64,000 nucleotides of DNA from Escherichia coli. Lineage in GTDB: Bacteria > Pseudomonadota > Gammaproteobacteria > Enterobacterales > Enterobacteriaceae. The stretch is from assembly GCF_003790525.1 (NCBI RefSeq), contig NZ_CP033635.1; one strand, 5' to 3'. How positions within the stretch are numbered: position 1 is the first letter of the stretch; every line of letters starts with the position of its first letter. The notes beneath the pieces are model-generated. The model did no database searches and was not told where the DNA came from. It saw only the letters and a program-made list of their open reading frames with translations. A program made the translations under genes and the position numbers. This document shows, piece by piece, positions 1,451 through 13,078 of this stretch.

Positions 1451-2824
1451 ATGAGTTCCGTCATTGAAACTACTCAATCAACTTCATCCGATTCCTTACC
1501 TTTAATACAGCGGATTAGCTACGGCTCACTGGATGTTGCCGGTAATCTGCTCTACTGTTTTGGCTCTACCTACATTCTTTATTTCTACACCGACGTAGCA
1601 GGGATTAGTCTGGCGGTTGCAGGCATAATCCTACTGCTGGCGCGCATTGTAGACGGTATTGATGCGCCAGTGTGGGGAATCATTATCGATAAAACCCATT
1701 CGCGTTATGGAAAATGCCGTCCATGGTTTTTATGGTTACCATTACCTTTTGCTGTATTTAGTGCGCTTTCTTTCTGGTCACCCGATATCAGCATGACAGG
1801 GAAAGCTGTTTATGCAGCAATATCGTACATGTTAGCCAGCATTCTGTTCACTGGGTTGAATACACCATTAAGCGCTATATTACCGCTGATGACGCTGTCA
1901 CCAAAGGAACGCCTGGTATTAAACTCATATCGCATGACTGGTGGGCAAATTGGCGTACTATTAATGAATGCGACAGCATTGCCATTGGTCGCTTTCCTTG
2001 GTAATGGTAACGATAAAGCAGGCTTTATATATACTGCCATAGTCTTTGCCGTAATATCCTGTGCCTTAACGTTGTTTGCCTTTAAAAATATTCGCGAACT
2101 GGATACCGATAAAATACAGCAAGAACCACGACTGCCGATGAAAAAGAGTTTTTCGGCAATGAAAGGGAACTGGCCGTGGCTCCTGATGGTAGTGGCGAAC
2201 CTTATCTTCTGGATTGCCCTACAGCAGCGCAACACTACTATTGTTTACTATTTAACCTACAATCTGGATCGCAAAGATCTGGTCCCGCTGGTTAACAGCC
2301 TCGCCACCATTCAGATCCTGTTTATCATTGCCATTCCGTTCTTCAGTCGCTATCTCACCAAAACCTGGATTTGGATTACCGGGCTGCTGGTTGCGATGTT
2401 AGGCGGGGGCCTCATGTGGCTGGCTGCCGACAGCATCCCTTTGATGATCGCCGCCTGGGTACTCGCCAATATCGGCAGCGGTATCGCCTGTTCTATGCCT
2501 TTCGCGATGCTCGGTTTCGCCGTTGACTTTGGTCGCTGGAAAACCGGCATTAAAGCTACCGGCATTCTGATCGCCTTCGGCAGCACCTTCTGCATCAAGA
2601 TGGGCAGTGGTATCGGTACAGCTTTCGCTGCCTTTATTATGGACAGCTTTGGTTATATCCCCAACCAACAACAGACGGCTGCGGGGTTGGAAGGTATCAG
2701 CCTGGCATTTATCTGGGTCCCTGCGCTGCTCTTTGCTCTCGCGGCTGTACCACTGCTCTTCTTTCGCCAGTATGAAGCGATGGAAGGTCGTATCCAACAC
2801 GATCTGCAAGCCCACAATCGTTGA
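1451..2824 (+). CDS. GPH-family (glycoside-pentoside-hexuronide:cation symporter, MelB/YicJ-like) MFS transporter, 457 aa
   Basis: ATG with upstream GGAGAG; highly hydrophobic multi-span protein; GPH-type motif DGIDAPVWGIIIDKTHSRYGKCRPW in loop 2-3; not present at this position in K-12. Confidence 0.85.
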   Translation: MSSVIETTQSTSSDSLPLIQRISYGSLDVAGNLLYCFGSTYILYFYTDVAGISLAVAGIILLLARIVDGIDAPVWGIIIDKTHSRYGKCRPWFLWLPLPFAVFSALSFWSPDISMTGKAVYAAISYMLASILFTGLNTPLSAILPLMTLSPKERLVLNSYRMTGGQIGVLLMNATALPLVAFLGNGNDKAGFIYTAIVFAVISCALTLFAFKNIRELDTDKIQQEPRLPMKKSFSAMKGNWPWLLMVVANLIFWIALQQRNTTIVYYLTYNLDRKDLVPLVNSLATIQILFIIAIPFFSRYLTKTWIWITGLLVAMLGGGLMWLAADSIPLMIAAWVLANIGSGIACSMPFAMLGFAVDFGRWKTGIKATGILIAFGSTFCIKMGSGIGTAFAAFIMDSFGYIPNQQQTAAGLEGISLAFIWVPALLFALAAVPLLFFRQYEAMEGRIQHDLQAHNR

Positions 2825-2863
2825 ATTTAATCAACATGCCACTTGCTCCTGGGAGGAACAATT

Positions 2864-4903
2864 ATGTCGTTTATTAAGCAAGATCCCCACCGTCTGGTCT
2901 GGCAACAAGACGATCGTTATCTCTGGATTGAAGCCTGGGGCGAAAACAGCTTACGCGTGCGAAGCGGCCGCCATTTACCGGTAATGCGCAATGAAAACTG
3001 GGCGTTAACTCAGGATCCTGGCGATGCTGTCGCTCATATCACCTGGGATGAAAAACAGGCAACGCTGAGAAATGGTAAAATCACTGCCATCGTAAATCTT
3101 CAGGGCCAGCTCTCTTTCTGGCGTAATGATGATAAATGCCTGCTGCAAGAGTTCTGGCGTCAACGTGGCGAAATTGGTGAAGATGAGTCAGCACACGGCC
3201 AATATGTGAGCGCTCTTAATCTACAGGCCCGTGAATTCAAGCCTATTCCTGGCGGGAAATTTACGATTAAGGCACGATTTGAAGCCAACGATGGCGAGAA
3301 ACTCTTTGGCATGGGTCAGTATCAGCAACCAAACCTGGATTTAAAAGGTTGCATGCTGGAGCTGGCACAACGTAACTCGCAGGCTTCTGTTCCCTTCCTG
3401 CTATCAAATCAGGGTTATGGTTTTCTGTGGAATAACCCAGCAATTGGCCGCGTCACCTTCGCGCAAAACGGTACGGAATGGGTAGCAGAAGTCAGTGAAC
3501 AACTGGACTACTGGATCACTGCGGGCGATACTCCGGCTGAGATCAGTGAAGCCTATGCACGAGTAACCGGTACGCCACCGATGATGCCTGATTACGCAAT
3601 GGGGTTCTGGCAATGCAAGCTTCGCTATCGTAATCAACAAGAATTGTTAGAAGTCGCACGCGGCTACAAGCAACGCAATCTTCCGATCTCGGTGATTGTC
3701 ATCGATTTCTTCCATTGGCCGAATCAGGGTGACTGGATGTTCGATCTGCGTGACTGGCCCGATCCCGATGCGATGATCGCCGAATTAAAAGAAATGGGTA
3801 TCGAACTGATGGTTTCATTCTGGCCTACCGTAGATAACCGTACCGAGAGTTATCGGGAGATGAAAGAAAACGGCTGGCTAGTCCACACCGAGCGTGGTTT
3901 GCCTATCAATATGGATTTCCTTGGCAACACCACGTTCTTTGATGCGACACATCCTGGCGCACGGGAATATGTCTGGAACAAAGCCAAACGCAATTATTAC
4001 GATAAAGGCGTGAAACTGTTCTGGCTGGATGAAGCCGAGCCAGAGTTCGGTGTTTACGATTATGACAACTATCGTTACTACGCAGGGCCAGTGCTGGAAG
4101 TCGGTAATATCTATCCGCGTATGTACGCCAAAACGTTCTTCGATGGCATGCAGGCAGCCGGAGAAAAGCAGGTGATCAATTTGCTACGCTGCGCCTGGGC
4201 CGGTAGTCAGAAATATGGTGCCCTGGTGTGGTCAGGCGATATCCACTCCTCCTTCCGTTCTCTGCGCAATCAGTTTGCTGCGGGGCTGAACATGGGAATT
4301 GCCGGGATCCCGTGGTGGACGACGGATATTGGCGGTTTCCACGGTGGCAACATACATGATCCAAAATTTCATGAACTGCTTATTCGCTGGTTCCAGTGGG
4401 GGGTATTCAGCCCAGTAATGCGTTTACATGGCAACCGCGACCCGCAAGTTTTGCCTGAACAACCCTATCGTGATGGCATCGCACAATGTCCGACTGGCGC
4501 GCCGAATGAAGTCTGGAGCTATGGTGAAGAAACCGGTGAAATTCTCACTTCCTGCCTGCAGTTGCGTGAGAAGCTGAAACCTTATATCAGTAAAATTATG
4601 GCTGAGACGCACGAGAAGAACAGCCCGGTAATGCGCACGATGTTCTTTGAGTTTCCAGACCAGGCAGAAAGCTGGAATATTTATGATCAGTACTGCTTTG
4701 GCCCGGACCTTCTCGTTGCCCCTGTAATGCACGAAGGTACACGTTCACGTGATGTCTGGTTGCCTGCCGGAGAGACATGGATCGATTTTTATACCCATGA
4801 ACACTACGCGGGTGGGCAAAAGCTTCATCATTGCGCGCCGCTGCACCAGATACCGGTATTCATTCGTGAGAAAGGGAAATATCGCCAGTTATTACCCGTT
4901 TAA
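2864..4903 (+). CDS. Glycoside hydrolase family 31 alpha-glycosidase (YicI/YihQ-like), ~679 aa
   Basis: ORF track begins at TTG 2843, but ATG 2864 has a GGGAGG Shine-Dalgarno 7 nt upstream; GH31 motifs FWLDEAEPE (candidate nucleophile Asp) and WSGDIHS (candidate acid/base Asp); 19 bp after the transporter stop, so likely one operon. Confidence 0.85.
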   Translation: MSFIKQDPHRLVWQQDDRYLWIEAWGENSLRVRSGRHLPVMRNENWALTQDPGDAVAHITWDEKQATLRNGKITAIVNLQGQLSFWRNDDKCLLQEFWRQRGEIGEDESAHGQYVSALNLQAREFKPIPGGKFTIKARFEANDGEKLFGMGQYQQPNLDLKGCMLELAQRNSQASVPFLLSNQGYGFLWNNPAIGRVTFAQNGTEWVAEVSEQLDYWITAGDTPAEISEAYARVTGTPPMMPDYAMGFWQCKLRYRNQQELLEVARGYKQRNLPISVIVIDFFHWPNQGDWMFDLRDWPDPDAMIAELKEMGIELMVSFWPTVDNRTESYREMKENGWLVHTERGLPINMDFLGNTTFFDATHPGAREYVWNKAKRNYYDKGVKLFWLDEAEPEFGVYDYDNYRYYAGPVLEVGNIYPRMYAKTFFDGMQAAGEKQVINLLRCAWAGSQKYGALVWSGDIHSSFRSLRNQFAAGLNMGIAGIPWWTTDIGGFHGGNIHDPKFHELLIRWFQWGVFSPVMRLHGNRDPQVLPEQPYRDGIAQCPTGAPNEVWSYGEETGEILTSCLQLREKLKPYISKIMAETHEKNSPVMRTMFFEFPDQAESWNIYDQYCFGPDLLVAPVMHEGTRSRDVWLPAGETWIDFYTHEHYAGGQKLHHCAPLHQIPVFIREKGKYRQLLPV

Positions 4904-5925: not shown

Positions 5926-7092
5926 TCAAACTGATGGACGCAAACGAACGCGTAACCAGCTGTATCCAATTACCGCCGAAGAGATAGAACCGACCAGGAT
6001 ACCGAGTTTCGCCCAGTTAATCAGTTCTGGATCTACGCTACCAAAGGCAAGGCTGGCAATAAAGATAGACATAGTAAAACCGATACCGCATAGGATCCCC
6101 ACCGCCATAATTTGCTGATAAGTCGTTCCCTCAGGCAGATGCGCCAGTTTCAAACGCAGCGCCAACCAGCAGAACAGACTAATACCCAGTGGCTTGCCAA
6201 TCAGCAAACCGGCGATGATCCCTAATGGCAGAATGGAGGTCAGGCCATCCAGCGTCACGCCTTGCAGAGATACCCCCGCATTGGCAAACGCAAACAACGG
6301 CAAAATCAGATATGCCACCCACGGATGCAAAACATGCTCCAGACGTTTAGCCGGAGAGCGCCCATGCTTCTCTTTTAACGGAATAAAGAAGCCGACAATG
6401 ACGCCAGCCAGCGTTGCATGGACACCTGATTTCAACACCGCTGTCCACAGTACCACGCCAACCAGAATATAAACGCCCGTGCGACGAACACCACAGATAT
6501 TCAGTACCGCGAGTACGGCAATCGCTACTGCCGCAACGCCGAGAGACGCCATCGATAAGTCATTAGTGTAGAACAATGCGATGATAATGATGGCCCCAAG
6601 ATCGTCGATAATAGCCAGAGCCATCAAAAAGATCTTCAGCGCTAACGGAACACGACTTCCCAACAGCGCCAGCACACCAAGTGCAAAGGCAATGTCAGTA
6701 GCCGCCGGGATCGCCCACCCTTCGCGGGTAATCGGATCGGCATAGTTAAAGGCCAGATAGAGCAATGCCGGCACAATCATCCCACCAATAGCGGCGATAA
6801 CTGGAAATGCGGCCTGGCGTAAGCTGGCTAGCGATCCTTGCATCAGTTCACGTTTAACTTCCAGACCGACTAACAGGAAAAATACCGCCATCAGCGCGTC
6901 ATTTATCCATAACAGCATGTTTTTGTTGATTTCGAGTGAACCAACCCGGAGCTGAACCGGCGTCTCCAGAAAGTCGTGATACCATCCACTGGTTGCGCCG
7001 CTATTGGCCATAATCATCGCCAGGATAGCGGCAATGATAAGAATAATGCCTCCCGAGGCATCACTGCTAAAGAATCGATGCAGATGTTTCAC
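5926..7092 (-). CDS. nhaA: Na+/H+ antiporter NhaA
   Basis: 388-aa polytopic membrane protein [51 protein letters not shown]... Confidence 0.95.
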
Positions 7093-7343
7093 TTTTTATT
7101 TCTCTTTCAGGTGAATAGATCGTTTTTACTATTTTACCCCGCACGAATCATCGTTAAAATCAGATTATAGTGTAGGAATAATTCGTTTTTTACGAACCAT
7201 TGAAGGATTTGTGCCATCAGCGATGAGATGATTTTTTGACGGCTGTAAGCGCTCACGAGTGACCCTAAGCCCTGATAATCATAGCTTAAGGTGAGGATTT
7301 CTGAGGGATTAATTAGGAAAAGTAATAATAAAATCGCACTGTG

Positions 7344-8588
7344 CTATAGCTGTTTATTCCAGAGATGCTTGAAAATATCTAATGTGGAGACAACATTGGC
7401 AGGCGACATTCGGTTTAATGAGGATAGAAAGGGATGAGACTCCAGGAAGTTGATAAAACGAGTCGCGCTTGCTAACGTCGAATACCGCATTTCATTTGCT
7501 TTCTTGTTTCCTGTAAGGTTACAAACAGCCATTGAATAATCACGGGCGGAAAATGTACGCCAAACATTATTTCTCACGCCACCACTCAAAAACAACCGCG
7601 GCGGCGTATCATAATGAGTCGTTTTCTCGCCGCGTTCTTTCACAAATGAAATATGGCACCGGCCTTGATGAATATGCTGTAAATTAGCCATCAGACAACC
7701 ACCTAATATAAAGCACTCGTGATCAAGGTAGTGTTGAATATTTATAGAATATGCTTCAGTCAGTGCTCTAACCAGTTCAAAATGGCGATACGCCGGAAGA
7801 ACCGGTTTCACCAACATCCCCGGATCGTTTTGATGTAATATCGCCCGACCATAATCAATATCAAATAAGGTATCACGCCGCATAGTAAGTAACTCCTTGC
7901 GTTGTACGTGATGCGCCAGTGTACCTGGAGACAAACGCTCTTCATAACTTGATGCATATTGATAATGCGACTCTACCGCTGATGGAGAATAATTTGTTGA
8001 AATAGCGACGACTCTACCGCTTTGTTCTTCTGCGGTAACAAGGCTATAAAGATAGTTATTACTACCGTTAAACTTTACGCGAAAAGCGCGGGTAGATAGA
8101 GAAATATCAGAAGCAGAAGAGTATTGGTAACTTTCTTTATAGTTTACTTCCCGGGCTAGTTTCATCAACTCACGGTTAAGCCCTGTGCTATTAAGAAGTA
8201 ATAATTTACGGATATCTGCAAGTGAAGCGCCTTGATCAATCATCAATGCTAAATGTGTTCTTCGCGGCGTTGTATTTACATGATCCAGAGTGATAAAAGT
8301 TCTGGAACAATGATGACAATACATTCTCCTCTGCCCCTGAGCTGAATAGCCATACTTTTTCAGAGATGTGCTTCCGCAAGCTGAACATTGTGGAACCAAC
8401 CCTCTCCATGAATGATTAACACGATTACGATAAATATTAAGAGATCGTTCAGATATCACAGGAAACAAGTAACCGCATTCCCGACATAAAATATTTTTTC
8501 CTTGTGCAATATAATCCTGGCTATTCAACAACCCCAGGTTTTTGCATCCTGGTGTTTTGCAACAATCAACATTTACGTTGGTAAACAT
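7344..8588 (-). CDS. Uncharacterised Cys-rich protein with two predicted CxxC...CxxC zinc-ribbon modules (InsA-like), ~414 aa
   Basis: ORF track starts at 8624, but the ATG at 8588 (MFTNVNV) has AGGGAG 6 nt upstream; motifs CKTPGC...CRECG and CSACGSTSLKKYGYSAQGQRRMYCHHCSRTF; C-terminal ~300 aa with no motif I recognise. Confidence 0.7.
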   Translation of the reverse strand: MFTNVNVDCCKTPGCKNLGLLNSQDYIAQGKNILCRECGYLFPVISERSLNIYRNRVNHSWRGLVPQCSACGSTSLKKYGYSAQGQRRMYCHHCSRTFITLDHVNTTPRRTHLALMIDQGASLADIRKLLLLNSTGLNRELMKLAREVNYKESYQYSSASDISLSTRAFRVKFNGSNNYLYSLVTAEEQSGRVVAISTNYSPSAVESHYQYASSYEERLSPGTLAHHVQRKELLTMRRDTLFDIDYGRAILHQNDPGMLVKPVLPAYRHFELVRALTEAYSINIQHYLDHECFILGGCLMANLQHIHQGRCHISFVKERGEKTTHYDTPPRLFLSGGVRNNVWRTFSARDYSMAVCNLTGNKKANEMRYSTLASATRFINFLESHPFLSSLNRMSPANVVSTLDIFKHLWNKQL

Positions 8589-8628
8589 ATTCACTCCCTG
8601 CGAATACCCGGATATTATCGTCATATGT

Positions 8629-8669
8629 CAAAGAAAAGAACCTGACTCAATGTGTAACATTGAATCAGG
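8629..8669 (-). terminator. Candidate intrinsic terminator/attenuator between the sulfatase gene and the Cys-rich gene
   Basis: 12-bp inverted repeat cctgactcaatg(tgtaa)cattgaatcagg; on the minus-strand RNA the stem is complete with one G-U pair and is followed by UUCUUUUCUUU. Confidence 0.45.
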
Positions 8670-8717
8670 CGGGCATGGCCCTGAAAGGCATACATTACAT
8701 TTATTATGGTTATCAGA

Positions 8718-10211
8718 TTAGCCCCAGGTTACCGCTTCCGGTTTATCACCTCTGGCTTTCATTAATGAATCATTATCAATATCGGCTTTATACTTTAAGA
8801 ACTTACCATACATTTGTTTTTCAATGTCTGGATTTTTACCTATCTGATTAATGGTCTCAAAACGATCGGTTTTGAGGTTGTATAGGTACTTTGGCTTATT
8901 GTTACGATCGATGATCATTTTCCAGTCACCATCACGTATCGCCCATTCGTCGGTTGGATCATCCTGGAATGGCATGTCAATTCCGAAGATTAATGGCTTT
9001 TCACGTTTTAGCGCTTTGTTCTCAAGGACAGGAACCAACGATTCGCCATCAAAAGTCCGGTCCGTCGGTAATTTGAAGTTCATCATTTTCGCCAGCGTAG
9101 GCATCCAGTCCAGACCATAAACAGGCGTATCTGAAACCATTCCCTTTGGAAGATGCTTTCCGTATTTAATAATCGCCGGAACACGGATGCCACCTTCCCA
9201 GAGATTATCCTTGCGACCACGTAATCCATCAGTTTCCCCTGCCAAATTCAGTTCATAAACTTTGCGCGCTTCACGCGTTACTGGTCCGTTATCACTGGTA
9301 AAAATAACGATGGTGTTATCTTCTTCACCCATCGCTTTGATTTTATCCAGTACTTTTCCAACCTGAGCATCCAGATAACTGATGTTGGCATAATATTCTC
9401 CTGTACCACGCCAGGGTTTATCCGCCCAGTCGCCATAAAATAAATCAGGATGCTGCTTCTGATAGTCGCTCATATATTGTGAGTACATGTCGAGGTATTT
9501 TTTGGGCGAAGCCAGGGGACTGTGCACTTCGGTAAAAGCGACATAAAGGAAGAAAGGCTTACTGTCCTTTTTGTTATCCAACCAGTTGACGACTTCCGAA
9601 CTGACATACTCACCACTCATTTTATCGGAACGTGGTGTGGGTTGCCCGTTACGCAACCAGCCCGTTGGATAGACCATGCCAAAACGGGGACGCTCCTTCG
9701 CATTATCCAGAGTAGCGTCGGTAACAAAACCCGCCGTATTAACCAGTGAGTAATCAAAGCCCATATCTTTTGCCTGCGGCTGATCGGTGCGATCGCCGCC
9801 TGCATTCAGATGCAGCTTACCCATCATGGCCGTGTCGTACCCTTGCGCTTTGAGTAGATTAGCAATCGTGAGTTCATTACGCCCTAATGCCACATCTTTT
9901 CCCGTTGGGATCCATGAGCGTATGCCGGTACGAAATGGCATCCGCCCTGTTAATAGTCCCGCCCGTGAAGGAGAACTTAAGGGGGCAGGTGCATAATAGT
10001 CGGTAAATTTGACGCCTTCCTGGGCAAGCCTGTCTATATTGGGCGTTTTAACGATCTGATGTCCATATGTTGCCAAATCACCATAGCCTAAATCATCCGC
10101 CATAATGATGACTAAATTGGGTTGTTTAGTTTCGGCGGCTACGGCTGGATTAAAAGCATTCCCTGTGCAAACTGCAAGGCCGATCAAACTGGCCATTAAT
10201 GTTTTCTGCAT
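8718..10211 (-). CDS. Secreted sulfatase (arylsulfatase family), Ser-type active-site motif SSPSR, ~497 aa
   Basis: Sulfatase signature PNLVIIMADDLGYGDL, active-site block PLSSPSRAGLLTGR (Ser at the formylglycine position), second signature GYDTAMMGKLH; N-terminal signal peptide MQKTLMASLIGLAVCTGNA; start chosen at ATG 10211 with AGGGA RBS (track ORF extends to 10247). Confidence 0.85.
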   Translation of the reverse strand: MQKTLMASLIGLAVCTGNAFNPAVAAETKQPNLVIIMADDLGYGDLATYGHQIVKTPNIDRLAQEGVKFTDYYAPAPLSSPSRAGLLTGRMPFRTGIRSWIPTGKDVALGRNELTIANLLKAQGYDTAMMGKLHLNAGGDRTDQPQAKDMGFDYSLVNTAGFVTDATLDNAKERPRFGMVYPTGWLRNGQPTPRSDKMSGEYVSSEVVNWLDNKKDSKPFFLYVAFTEVHSPLASPKKYLDMYSQYMSDYQKQHPDLFYGDWADKPWRGTGEYYANISYLDAQVGKVLDKIKAMGEEDNTIVIFTSDNGPVTREARKVYELNLAGETDGLRGRKDNLWEGGIRVPAIIKYGKHLPKGMVSDTPVYGLDWMPTLAKMMNFKLPTDRTFDGESLVPVLENKALKREKPLIFGIDMPFQDDPTDEWAIRDGDWKMIIDRNNKPKYLYNLKTDRFETINQIGKNPDIEKQMYGKFLKYKADIDNDSLMKARGDKPEAVTWG

Positions 10212-10230
10212 AATTATTCCCTGATGAAAA

Positions 10231-10992
10231 TTAGAAATCATAACCAAGCATATAAATCATTTGATCGCCAAAACCATCGTAGCCCAACTTATTATCGAAA
10301 TAACGCCACGTCACACTGGCTTTCCAGCGAGGATAGAACTTCCAGGCCACTGTTAAACCGCCATTTAGCCCATTCCGACCAAATTGTTGTTCCGCATAGG
10401 CATCATTTCTGTCCAGTTCTATTTCATTCCAGTTAGATAAAACAAATTTTTCGTCAAATAACGTAAAAGGTAATACTGCTGTCCAGCCAACAACATAACC
10501 ATTCCAGCCATTTGTTTGTCCATATTTGGCTGAGACGTAGTCTCCAGATTGATTATGTAATCCAATATACGGTTTAAAAAACCCCCATGAACCATTCCAG
10601 CCGAGGTAGCCCAAACCATAAAACATATCAAGATCGTCACCCCATGAGTTATCCCATTGACCATAGATCTTGCCAAAGAAAGTCATATTGGAGTCAAAGA
10701 GTCTGACATGTGTCATAGCAGAAACGGTATGATTACGCCCCGCTACGGCATGGTTAAGCACATTGCTTTCATAAAATGAGTAAAACTCGGCTTCTTTAAA
10801 ATTCACACCAAAGTCTGCAGTCACTTTCCATACTTCACCACGATGAGTGTTAACGAAGCCACTATTCCAGTCAGCATAACCTGCATTTATTGAGCCAAAG
10901 GAACCTTTATATTCTAATGAAGAATATGCAGGAAGGTGATAGAAAATCGTTGTCAGGGCACACGCAATAAGAAGCCGTCTTTTGGCAGACAT
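10231..10992 (-). CDS. Tsx/OmpK-like outer-membrane channel protein, 253 aa
   Basis: Signal peptide MSAKRRLLIACALTTIFYHLPAYS, Trp/Tyr/Gly-rich beta-barrel-like sequence, C-terminal Phe; WDNSWGDDLD block resembles Tsx; GGAGAG RBS; ends 19 bp upstream of the sulfatase start. Confidence 0.7.
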   Translation of the reverse strand: MSAKRRLLIACALTTIFYHLPAYSSLEYKGSFGSINAGYADWNSGFVNTHRGEVWKVTADFGVNFKEAEFYSFYESNVLNHAVAGRNHTVSAMTHVRLFDSNMTFFGKIYGQWDNSWGDDLDMFYGLGYLGWNGSWGFFKPYIGLHNQSGDYVSAKYGQTNGWNGYVVGWTAVLPFTLFDEKFVLSNWNEIELDRNDAYAEQQFGRNGLNGGLTVAWKFYPRWKASVTWRYFDNKLGYDGFGDQMIYMLGYDF

Positions 10993-11499
10993 ATAATATG
11001 CTCTCCATTCATTTTTTTTATGGTTCCATAGAAATCAATACATCAGATAATTCATTTTGATTAAGAACGACTCAGAAAGTATATTTAAAGGTGAATGGCA
11101 AAGCGTGATGGAGATCGCAGATTACTTTTACCCCCGGGTGTGGAGGTATCGTGTTTCAAAAAGTGTGTCGATTTTAAATATCACTCATTGATTTATAAAC
11201 ATTTTTCCTCACAAAAAGAAAATTCAATTCTGTACAAGAATATTTTGTATCTTCTATTACTTTCTCCAGTAATAACTCACCATTCAGGCATAACTTAAAC
11301 CTCTTGTTCATAATCTCAACTTTTGTAAATGAAAACGCACATAAGAGTTAAAATAAACAATGTACTAAAGATTGATTACGCAAAAATGCGAGGCGTCTTC
11401 AGGATTAGAATCGATAAAACAGAATGGGTTAAAGAGAGCGATATAATAGCGGCGGGTGCTTGAGGCTGTCTGTCTCAGGCATTAGCTGAACGGCAGATA

Positions 11500-11560
11500 G
11501 AGAAAAGCCCCGAGTGATATTTTACCATCAACCCGAGGCCCCCTATATGCAGAACACATG
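11500..11560 (-). ncRNA. sokC: sokC antisense RNA of the hokC/mokC type I toxin-antitoxin locus (approximate position)
   Basis: Placed by analogy with K-12, where sokC is antisense to the mokC start; not independently verified from the sequence. Confidence 0.35.
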
Positions 11561-11756
11561 TAGAGTGCCTCTTACTGACCGTAAGGTCAAGGAGAAGAGA
11601 GCAATGAAGCAGCATAAGGCGATGATTGTCGCCCTGATCGTCATCTGTATCACCGCCGTAGTGGCGGCGCTGGTAACGAGAAAAGACCTCTGTGAGGTTC
11701 ACATCCGAACTGGCCAGACGGAGGTTGCTGTTTTCACGGCTTACGAATCCGAGTAA
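11547..11756 (+). CDS. mokC: mokC, overlapping reading frame that couples hokC translation (69 aa)
   Basis: In-frame upstream ATG giving MQNTCRVPLTDRKVKEKRA fused to the HokC sequence. Confidence 0.6.
   Translation: MQNTCRVPLTDRKVKEKRAMKQHKAMIVALIVICITAVVAALVTRKDLCEVHIRTGQTEVAVFTAYESE
11604..11756 (+). CDS. hokC: Hok/Gef-family small membrane toxin HokC (50 aa)
   Basis: Translation MKQHKAMIVALIVICITAVVAALVTRKDLCEVHIRTGQTEVAVFTAYESE; 3' hairpin ggcgggg(agtgat)ccccgcc at 11764-11783. Confidence 0.85.
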   Translation: MKQHKAMIVALIVICITAVVAALVTRKDLCEVHIRTGQTEVAVFTAYESE

Positions 11757-11859: not shown

Positions 11860-12990
11860 TTAGCGAGTCAGGTCGTCAAAAAACTTCTTCACACCATCAA
11901 AGAAGCTCTTTGAACGCGGGCTGTTGTGCTCGCCGGTTGGGCCACCGAAGCTTTCCTGCAGCTCTTGCAGCAGCTGTTTCTGCTTCTCGTTCAGACCTAC
12001 CGGTGTTTCGACGACAACGCGGCACAGCAAGTCCCCTTGCGCACCGCCGCGAACAGACTTGACGCCTTTACCACGCATACGGAACAGCTTACCGGTCTGG
12101 GTTTCGCCAGGCACTTTCAGTTTGACGCGACCATCAAGGGTCGGTACTTCGATTTCGCCACCCAGCGCTGCCATCGCGAAGTTGATCGGGACTTCGCAAT
12201 ACAGGTTGTTACCTTCACGCTCGAAAATCGGGTGCTGTTTAACCTGAACCTGAACGTACAGATCGCCTGCCGGTGCGCCATGCTCGCCCGCTTCACCTTC
12301 GCCCGCAAGACGGATGCGGTCTCCAGTGTCCACCCCTGCCGGGATTTTAACGGACAGCGTTTTGCTGCGCTCAACACGACCATGACCATGACATTTGTTG
12401 CACGGATCTTTGATCAGCGTACCGCGGCCCTGACAGTGTGGACAGGTCTGCTGTACAGCGAAGAAGCCCTGGCGCATCTGCACCTGACCAGAACCATGAC
12501 AGGTCGGACAGGTCTGCGGCTGTGTACCTGGTTTTGCACCGCTACCGTGGCAAACGTCACACTCTTCCAGAGTCGGAATGCGGATCTCTTTGGTCACGCC
12601 ACGTACAGCTTCTTCGAGGGTGAGCTCCATGTTATAGCGTAAATCAGCACCGCGCGCCGCACGTTGACGACCACGTCCGCCGCCAAAAATATCGCCGAAA
12701 ACGTCACCAAAAATATCGCTGAAGTCTGCGCCGCCGCCAAAACCGCCGCCGCCCATGCCGCCTTGCTCAAACGCAGCATGACCATACTGATCGTATGCCG
12801 CACGTTTTTGCGAGTCGGTCAGAACTTCATAAGCTTCCTTGATCTCTTTAAATTTCGCCTCGGCCTCTTTGTCACCCTGGTTACGGTCCGGGTGGTATTT
12901 CATGGCCAGGCGTTTGTAGGCCTTTTTGATTTCACGCTCTTCCGCTGTTTTGGAAACGCCTAAAATCTCGTAATAATCTTGCTTAGCCAT
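11860..12990 (-). CDS. dnaJ: Chaperone DnaJ (Hsp40)
   Basis: Translation from [47 protein letters not shown]...; 376 aa; Gly-rich and CxxCxGxG zinc-finger repeats. Confidence 0.96.
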
Positions 12991-13078
12991 CTTTTTTAAA
13001 TTGCCCCTAGATGAATGCACGGGCGGAGAGGAAATTCCCCTTCGCCCGTGTCAGTATAATTACCCGTTTATAGGGCGA

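Follow-up and report, generated by a model that had tools for sequence, protein, structure and literature searches.

The stretch of Escherichia coli contig NZ_CP033635.1 (assembly GCF_003790525.1) analyzed here, 64,000 nucleotides long and referred to below as the window, carries a porin-sulfatase-hyp426 gene cluster between nhaA and dnaJ, and it is the AT-rich interval upstream of this cluster (10993-11500), which reaches into the neighboring hokC locus, that we describe. The window is inverted in orientation with respect to K-12. Its 4.5 kb from nhaA to hokC are 100% identical to SMS-3-5 (NC_010498.1), and the 508-bp interval itself is 100% identical in ATCC 11775. The genes at the locus are as follows.

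5926-7092, minus strand: nhaA
7344-8624, minus strand: hyp426, a 426-aa hypothetical protein, third gene of the operon
8718-10211, minus strand: sulfatase
10231-10992, minus strand: porin, a 253-aa Tsx/OmpK-family outer-membrane channel and first gene of the operon (Pfam PF03502 Channel_Tsx, E=1.3e-13; annotated in RefSeq as 'outer membrane protein OmpK')
11547/11604-11756, plus strand: hokC/mokC (RefSeq coding sequence WP_000809168.1)
11860-13020, minus strand: dnaJ

The interval is a composite intergenic region that separates two divergent transcription units, the porin operon and hokC. It consists of three ordinary parts, namely the promoter and 5' untranslated region (5'UTR) of the porin operon, a hypervariable spacer, and the promoter and start of the leader of hokC; nothing exotic is needed to explain the AT-rich gap. 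Its guanine-plus-cytosine (GC) content is 34.4% over 10993-11500 and 30.7% over 10993-11380, compared with 42.8% for the genes of the cluster and 50.9% for the window, and just 0.02% of the 388-bp segments within the 64 kb are equally AT-rich as 10993-11380. The longest open reading frames (ORFs) in the interval, of 67 aa on the plus strand and 45 aa on the minus strand, have no Pfam or NCBIfam match, and the matching RefSeq records carry no annotation inside it. This composition and these short frames bear out an earlier note on this DNA, which had described the interval as non-coding and AT-rich and had quoted two AT-rich runs from it, located here at 11012-11031 and 11168-11208. The note had also taken the whole interval as the region upstream of the cluster, which holds for 10993-11380, whereas 11381-11500 is made up of the following features of hokC.

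11381-11453, plus strand: hokC promoter region, 99% identical to K-12
11442-11447, plus strand: hokC -10 element TATAAT, ending 6 nt before the Rfam match
11454-11606, plus strand: hokC mRNA 5' leader up to the start codon at 11604, a full-length match to Rfam RF01794 'sok'

The RF01794 match reaches 116.9 bits, where the gathering threshold is 59 (E=2.9e-27), and ends at the hokC ATG. Given this full-length match and the TATAAT that precedes it, the 120 bp at 11381-11500 belong to hokC and not to the sulfatase cluster, and the hokC mRNA leader contributes its first 47 nt to the right end of the interval. By EcoCyc coordinates, the antisense RNA sokC lies within this leader at about 11555-11501 on the minus strand. 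The RF01794 model, named for the sok antitoxin, matches the hokC mRNA strand here; it marks the hok leader, which is the target of sok, and not the antisense RNA strand. With a hokC promoter and a full-length leader next to a ~50-aa Hok ORF the locus is like other hok/sok type I toxin-antitoxin loci (parB of plasmid R1, chromosomal hokC/sokC) and shows nothing unusual; unlike in K-12, hokC is not interrupted downstream by IS186. The element downstream of hokC in K-12 is of the IS4 family (IS186/IS421). The promoter region of hokC at 11381-11445 exists in two forms, one common to the window and K-12 and the other to sequence type 131 (ST131)-type strains and E. albertii.

Proposed promoter of the porin operon

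The region upstream of the porin gene was aligned for five Escherichia alleles (the SMS-3-5/ATCC 11775 type, O169:H41, E. albertii, GW-AmxH19 and ST131), which differ by 10-25% over the cluster. The elements are listed from the distal end toward the porin start codon, with the invariant positions in brackets.

11201-11380, no strand assigned: hypervariable AT-rich distal spacer, 27.8% GC, the most AT-rich part (read on the minus strand as 11380-11201, 30% of columns invariant)
11176-11200, minus strand: block Z, TATAAATCAATGAGTGATATTTAAA, more weakly conserved (18/25 invariant in Escherichia)
11149-11168, minus strand: block A, ACACACTTTTTGAAACACGA, a conserved upstream element spanning about -78 to -97 (18/20)
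11148-11129, minus strand: spacer between block A and the CRP-like site (8/20)
11122-11101, minus strand: CRP-like 22-mer (20/22)
11104-11121, core 11119-11104, minus strand: CRP-like site TGCGA-TCTCCA-TCACG, assigned by orthology and position
11100-11091, minus strand: spacer between the CRP-like site and the -10 (0/10)
11090-11078, minus strand: -10 block CTTTAAATATACT (13/13)
11078-11083, minus strand: -10-like hexamer TATACT, within the invariant -10 block
10993-11071, minus strand: predicted porin 5'UTR of ~79 nt, read from the sequence
11019-11012, minus strand: A8 tract
11006-11003, minus strand: Shine-Dalgarno sequence GGAG

Because the three promoter blocks (-10 block, CRP-like 22-mer and block A) are 90-100% invariant and the neighboring spacers only 0-40%, the pattern is one of purifying selection and not of decay. 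The same blocks recur, at fixed or helically phased distances, in 14 orthologous loci of ~10 genera, whereas the spacers between them are unalignable. Ten sequences that were measured all keep one spacing, with 49 nt from the block A core to ATCAC and 26 nt from there to the hexamer TA[TAC]ACT, and the -10-like hexamer lies 83-91 nt ahead of the start codon. In most of the genera examined a hexamer reading TA[TAC]ACT, TAGAAT or TAGACT starts 26-28 nt after ATCAC, Klebsiella being read less exactly. The forms of the palindromic site, and the individual distances in nt, are given below.

All Escherichia: TGCGA-N6-TCACG (11119-11104)
Kosakonia, Phytobacter and UBA3516 (an unclassified Enterobacteriaceae metagenome-assembled genome, MAG): TGTGATA-N4-TATCACA, that is, TGTGA-N8-TCACA
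Buttiauxella: TGTGA-N6-TCACA, an exact CRP core (10/10); block A core to ATCAC 38, ATCAC to hexamer 27
Franconibacter: TGTGA-N6-TCACA, an exact CRP core (10/10); block A core to ATCAC 49, ATCAC to hexamer 25 or 27
Salmonella: TGAGA-N6-TCAC(N); block A core to ATCAC 28, ATCAC to hexamer 27
Klebsiella quasipneumoniae: TGAGA-N6-TCAC(N); block A core to ATCAC 48, hexamer distance not read exactly
Klebsiella huaxiensis: TGAGA-N6-TCAC(N); block A core to ATCAC 49, ATCAC to hexamer about 26
Citrobacter youngae: TGAGA-N6-TCACT, alternatively TGTGA-N8-TCACT; block A core to ATCAC 49, ATCAC to hexamer 26

Against the consensus TGTGA-N6-TCACA the core scores 8-9/10 in Klebsiella, Salmonella and C. youngae, and 8/10, with two mismatches, in E. 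coli. The shorter block A offsets differ from 49 by steps of ~10.5 bp, so that the helical face is kept. The center of the site lies 28.5 bp from the first base of the hexamer in E. coli and 29.5 bp in other genera, which places it at -40.5/-41.5 with respect to the predicted start, and the distance of 29.5 bp is found both with the 6-bp spacer (Buttiauxella, and Franconibacter with one of its two candidate hexamers) and with the 8-bp spacer (the Kosakonia group).

The transcription start site (TSS) is predicted from the -10 hexamer, which is a fair one, to lie near 11071. At 17 bp upstream of TATACT the sequence reads ACGCTT, which matches TTGACA at one of six positions, so there is no -35 element, and a consensus promoter scan returned no sigma-70 pair at the position of TATACT. 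Given that the -35 is missing and that a CRP-type site occupies the class II position, ~41 bp upstream of the predicted start, the promoter most likely needs cyclic AMP (cAMP)-CRP, and the porin operon probably has the anatomy of a class II CRP-dependent promoter. The case for CRP rests on orthology and position, since the E. coli core taken by itself does not rise above chance, and an exact-palindrome search of the window did not recover the E. coli site, which is too degenerate for it. The earlier note had foreseen a promoter in need of a specific activator, and in spirit this agrees with the missing -35 and the conserved CRP-type site at the class II position. In the mechanism we propose, cAMP-CRP at 11119-11104 would activate transcription of porin, sulfatase and hyp426 from the TATACT promoter on the minus strand, and block A, helically phased with the CRP-type site, would bind a helper activator. 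The predicted 5'UTR is invariant at 65 of its 79 positions in the five Escherichia alleles and is unstructured (minimum free energy (MFE) -6.5 kcal/mol, z=+1.55).

Class II CRP-dependent promoters of E. coli include those of the galP1 and melR type, and the promoter of the Tsx channel gene is activated by CRP. The porin operon resembles these in having a candidate site of the TGTGA-N6-TCACA type ~41.5 bp upstream of the predicted start, where it overlaps the missing -35, and its first gene likewise encodes a Tsx-family channel, presumably within a catabolic operon. It differs in that the E. coli site is degenerate (TGCGA/TCACG), that some genera have an 8-bp spacer and that there is a second, helically phased element upstream; here, moreover, the start and the dependence on CRP are predictions.

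Block A is well supported by the alignments as a conserved, phased element. Its 13-nt core is the core of the E. coli OmpR consensus TTTTACTTTTTG(A/T)AACATAT, in the form quoted in PMC5559549; this is the only exact match in the 64 kb and was reached in 0/100 shuffles, and every genus retains the GxxAC of block A. In other genera the most OmpR-like 20-mer is a different one. Control of a porin gene by OmpR would make sense, and an OmpR-type response regulator may be considered as a weak candidate for the protein that binds here. Block Z is partly alignable across genera. It is overlapped by a sigma-70-like match of the promoter scan, TTTATA-17-TAAAAT (11199-11171), the -10 of which loses a T in the ST131-type allele (TAAAAC).

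As far as our literature search found, this upstream region is dissected here for the first time; what is new is an undescribed, apparently CRP-type promoter of a known kind, together with the re-reading of the module downstream of it as apparently ancestral. A conserved and, as its sequence suggests, probably CRP-dependent promoter offers a starting point for asking when extraintestinal pathogenic E. coli lineages such as ST131 express the porin and the sulfatase.

Synteny of the cluster and the boundary with K-12

A protein-guided synteny scan was made with one genome per species, to which Klebsiella and Salmonella were added via homologues of hyp426. The order porin-sulfatase-hyp426 was found between dnaJ and nhaA, with both flanks on the contig, in Kosakonia, Phytobacter ursingii, P. 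diazotrophicus, P. massiliensis, UBA3516 and E. albertii. Shorter contigs gave the same order in part, with the dnaJ side in C. youngae and the nhaA side in a Citrobacter MAG, E. whittamii and an Escherichia sp., and the short contig of Kluyvera intermedia held the cluster only. K. quasipneumoniae and K. huaxiensis have the same order of dnaJ, cluster and nhaA; in Salmonella the cluster is rearranged and the porin gene is divergent. The position between dnaJ and nhaA is shared by the cluster in at least eight genera. Between E. coli and Kosakonia the proteins are 82% (porin), 78% (sulfatase), 75% (nhaA) and 96% (dnaJ) identical; the values for porin and sulfatase are comparable to that for nhaA, and the cluster therefore diverges like its neighbors. 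The spacer upstream of the porin gene measures 380-602 bp in other genera, with 33-43% GC, and hokC was present only in Escherichia in the species scan. There is no integrase or tRNA next to the cluster, and the sole transposase-like feature near it is the zinc ribbon of hyp426, a protein that is itself syntenic across genera.

Given this synteny across genera, the cluster, together with its long AT-rich leader region, is probably ancestral at this chromosomal site in the Enterobacteriaceae, and K-12 is best read as a deletion. The cluster and its AT-rich leader region would already have stood at the dnaJ-nhaA site in the ancestor of the family, hokC/sokC would then have been added between dnaJ and the porin gene in Escherichia, and K-12-type strains would later have lost ~4 kb (7335-11380). 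The horizontally acquired insertion that the earlier note had proposed is not borne out, as the same synteny is seen in other genera and no repeats flank the segment. Because the spacer is AT-rich and the cluster syntenic in other genera as well, the low GC here is intrinsic and no mark of recent arrival, and low GC at this locus should not count as evidence of horizontal gene transfer (HGT). The variably present 'sulfatase module' next to nhaAR, as known from B2, F and further E. coli lineages, is probably an operon ancestral to the enterobacteria and deleted in K-12-like lineages.

The boundaries can be read directly from the alignment with K-12, which is 99% identical to the window from 11381 rightwards and has no match to the left of it; across K-12, O157 and most other genomes, identity of 99-100% begins at 11381/11382 and continues through hokC. 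At the left boundary identity with K-12 ends at 7334/7335, 10 bp beyond the hyp426 stop codon. The segment replaced in K-12-type genomes is the following.

7335-11380: ~4.05 kb with hyp426, the sulfatase and porin genes and most of the upstream region

In place of these 4046 bp K-12 carries 133 bp. At a coverage of at least 80% the segment is found in 1271 of 5426 complete E. coli genomes and the remainder match the flanks only, so that the cluster is present in 23% and absent from 77%. The earlier note had expected the K-12 junction to fall inside the interval and a part of the interval to be K-12 hokC/sokC upstream sequence, and both points are confirmed by the alignment, the K-12-like part being 11381-11500. 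The right ~40 bp of the 133-bp filler share homology with the ST131/GW-AmxH19-type distal spacer, at a score that 0/200 shuffles attain, and its left ~23 nt match the edge of the GW allele. The middle ~80 bp show no significant similarity to the 3' end of hyp426, although the MAFFT alignment looked suggestive, and a search for direct or inverted repeats flanking the 4-kb segment gave nothing meaningful. Since both ends of the filler match an allele that carries the cluster and there are no flanking repeats, the boundary at 11381 is not a clean insertion scar and is best read as the edge of conserved hokC sequence. Other rearrangements have struck this neighborhood too. The genome of E. coli FDAARGOS_944 has an IS110-family element just upstream of the nhaA-proximal sequence, with a LacI/phosphotransferase system block beyond it, and ISEc60 lies downstream of hokC.

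The distal spacer is ~50% identical to the ST131/GW-type allele, that is, unalignable with it, and it is likewise unalignable across genera; it is single-copy and chromosomal only. RNA folding of its two strands gave z-scores of -0.68 and -0.44, within those of shuffles, and an Rfam search at E<=1 returned the hokC leader as its sole match and none in the spacer. No terminator-like sites were found in 10993-11500. By these comparisons the distal spacer has no detectable function, evolves about as fast as neutral DNA and acts like unconstrained DNA between two promoters. An inverted repeat, TTATTACT-GGAGAA-AGTAATA at 11275-11255 on the minus strand, forms part of the MFE structure; the O169:H41 and E. 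albertii alleles have a weaker version of it, and the ST131 type has none.

Alternatives to a probable CRP-type promoter of a probably ancestral operon

Taken together, we consider it likely that the interval is accounted for by a CRP-type class II promoter, a neutral spacer and the hokC promoter, upstream of an ancestral cluster that was deleted in K-12. Several points weigh against this account. CRP-like matches with two mismatches occur in the window at the chance rate (21 observed, 25 expected), the perfect match of Kosakonia and Phytobacter is spaced by 8 bp, unusual for CRP and possibly a sign of some other dimeric regulator, and the distal sigma-70-like match at 11199-11171 would place blocks A and B downstream of the start. 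The comparison of block A with OmpR was made post hoc, and its score of 13/20 against the consensus is a typical best score in shuffled AT-rich DNA. In no species did the literature search turn up data on the TSS, the expression or the protein binding of this promoter, and a literature search for the palindrome sequence yielded nothing usable. Deletion and repeated gain are not formally separable without a reconciled phylogeny, and published work on 12 Escherichia genomes, which described the 'putative cerebroside sulfatase' module of the nhaAR region as volatile and low in GC, favored HGT, with multiple events of gain and of loss (Lescat et al. 2014, PMC4182557). That module is the same locus as the one described here, which cross-genus synteny leads us to read as ancestral and then lost, in contrast to HGT.

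The palindrome might instead be the operator of a regulator other than CRP, for example a dedicated repressor or the zinc-ribbon/HTH protein hyp426 of the operon itself, and the class II geometry a coincidence. Five species carry the 7-4-7 palindrome TGTGATA-N4-TATCACA, with its gap of 8 bp between TGTGA and TCACA, and the operon does encode an IS1/InsA-type zinc-ribbon protein, hyp426, in whose low-confidence AlphaFold model a three-helix segment (residues 120-165) is the only confident internal stretch. We find this improbable, however, given that the canonical CRP core stands unaltered, 6-bp spacer included, at this position in Buttiauxella and Franconibacter, that Klebsiella, Salmonella, C. 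youngae and Escherichia all read TG.GA-N6-TCAC, and that the distance from center to hexamer is kept at 29.5 bp in both spacer forms and at 28.5 bp in Escherichia. Spacers of both 6 and 8 bp are on record for CRP sites (Barber et al. 1993, as cited in PMC10187061). It is also doubtful that the promoter in Escherichia is a decaying relic, of an operon that is heading for loss and an upstream region that no longer works. Such decay would fit a CRP-like core degraded from the perfect consensus of other genera, the missing radical-SAM maturase gene of Escherichia clusters, the change of the catalytic Cys to Ser in all Escherichia sulfatases, the apparent frameshift in the E. albertii porin and the deletion of the cluster in 77% of E. 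coli genomes; yet the three promoter blocks are still 90-100% invariant within Escherichia next to spacers at 0-40%, none of the three genes is disrupted in the E. coli alleles examined, and the sulfatase protein is 96-99% identical across Escherichia species. Within the reading as a CRP-type promoter, we raise tentatively, as a possibility at some distance from the data, that the 6-bp-spacer core, the 8-bp-spacer palindrome and the TGCGA/TCACG hybrid form a natural series of one class II site, along which the distance from site center to -10 is kept within 1 bp (28.5-29.5 bp) and the upstream element shifts in helical-turn steps. The Escherichia operon might then have been repurposed and rewired and not merely be decaying, because the remodeled site coincides with a sulfatase that has exchanged Cys for Ser and lost its maturase. 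If this were true, both the long-debated CRP sites with 8-bp spacers and the co-evolution of enzyme and promoter could be put to the test at this one compact locus.

The cluster could also be, in line with the earlier note, a horizontally acquired island next to hokC, the AT-rich upstream region of which serves as a platform for silencing by H-NS. GC is very low here (30.7% upstream and 42.8% within the genes, where the window has 50.9%), and the cluster is found in just 23% of complete E. coli genomes. AT-rich DNA bound by H-NS is a common target of SsrB. The orthologous region of Salmonella (STM0036) is listed in a table of SsrB chromatin immunoprecipitation and regulation (PMC2837388), and published work has taken the low GC of the neighborhood to indicate HGT, with gain and loss occurring repeatedly (PMC4182557). 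Like H-NS-silenced AT-rich islands (Salmonella pathogenicity islands, E. coli bgl), the locus has very AT-rich upstream DNA and a cluster below genome GC; in contrast to them, its synteny is conserved across genera and it bears no signatures of mobility. An acquired island seems unlikely to us, with the cluster at the same dnaJ-nhaA position in at least eight genera, its protein identities to E. coli comparable to that of the flanking nhaA, the AT-rich spacer kept as a feature in other genera, and neither flanking repeats nor an integrase or tRNA at hand, the only transposase-like feature (the hyp426 zinc ribbon) being syntenic. The AT-richness makes binding of H-NS plausible but is silent on origin: judged from composition, the chances that H-NS occupies the region are about even, and the distal spacer would be the likeliest place for it to bind. 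The literature search gave no H-NS or expression data usable for the cluster. That the distal spacer hides an unannotated small protein or small RNA gene is, finally, very improbable. The 45-aa ORF (11311-11174, minus strand) has an apparently in-frame similarity to E. albertii (LNGELLLE.VI), and there is the local hairpin at 11275-11255; this ORF, however, is cut after five codons in the 92%-identical O169:H41 allele and absent from the ST131 type, neither a Pfam or NCBIfam match nor an Rfam match at E<=1 was obtained, the RNA-fold z-scores lie within shuffles on both strands, and 10993-11500 holds no terminator-like site. The ORF was rejected as a gene, being broken in O169:H41, the closest other allele.

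Sulfatase, hyp426 and neighboring loci

At the formylglycine position of the sulfatase (residues ~79-83) all six Escherichia sequences have Ser (SSPSR), and the nine from other genera all read CSPSR. A gene for a radical-SAM/SPASM maturase lies between the sulfatase and hyp426 genes in Kosakonia, Phytobacter ursingii, Salmonella and K. quasipneumoniae; the Escherichia clusters have no such gene adjacent to them. Ser-type sulfatases are known to need a maturase of the AtsB type. For the Escherichia enzyme, dependence on AslB/YdeM, a lack of activity or direct use of Ser may thus each be considered. The porin of E. albertii NBRC 107761 (6001-6758 of its locus, L015) was recovered by tblastn as two pieces in different frames, covering residues 1-143 and 137-253, a pattern suggestive of a pseudogene with a frameshift in this strain. 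In the rearranged Salmonella cluster (locus L028, 4838-7686) the gene for a Tsx-type channel with 56% identity to the E. coli porin is oriented divergently from that for the sulfatase, the conserved promoter blocks stand upstream of the sulfatase with a leader of ~215 nt, and the cluster is flanked by two arylsulfotransferase genes and a 5'-nucleotidase-like gene.

The third protein of the operon, hyp426, belongs to no Pfam family and has an N-terminal zinc ribbon of the IS1/InsA type (NCBIfam NF050000, residues 80-111) with conserved Cys pairs. Its AlphaFold model is poor (mean predicted local distance difference test score, pLDDT, of 54), apart from the three-helix segment at 120-165, where pLDDT is 83-94 over residues 121-160, and a sequence search of the PDB gave marginal zinc-finger matches only. 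The gene is single-copy, syntenic across the Enterobacteriaceae and fast-evolving, with 55-63% identity outside Escherichia, and it may encode a domesticated transposase-like DNA-binding protein.

Over 5926-10992 two E. coli alleles differ by 5-25% in nucleotides (about 8% for nhaA), far above normal within-species divergence, and this difference agrees with the divergence of nhaAR published for B2 strains versus non-B2 ones (PMC4182557). The sole other stretch of the window as AT-rich as the interval is 1110-1507, just upstream of a pair of ORFs of 457 and 686 aa that lie to the left of nhaR (1451-4903, plus strand), where ATCC 11775 directly has rpsT. At the matching position K. huaxiensis carries genes for a major facilitator superfamily transporter (457 aa) and a GH31 glycosidase (679 aa).

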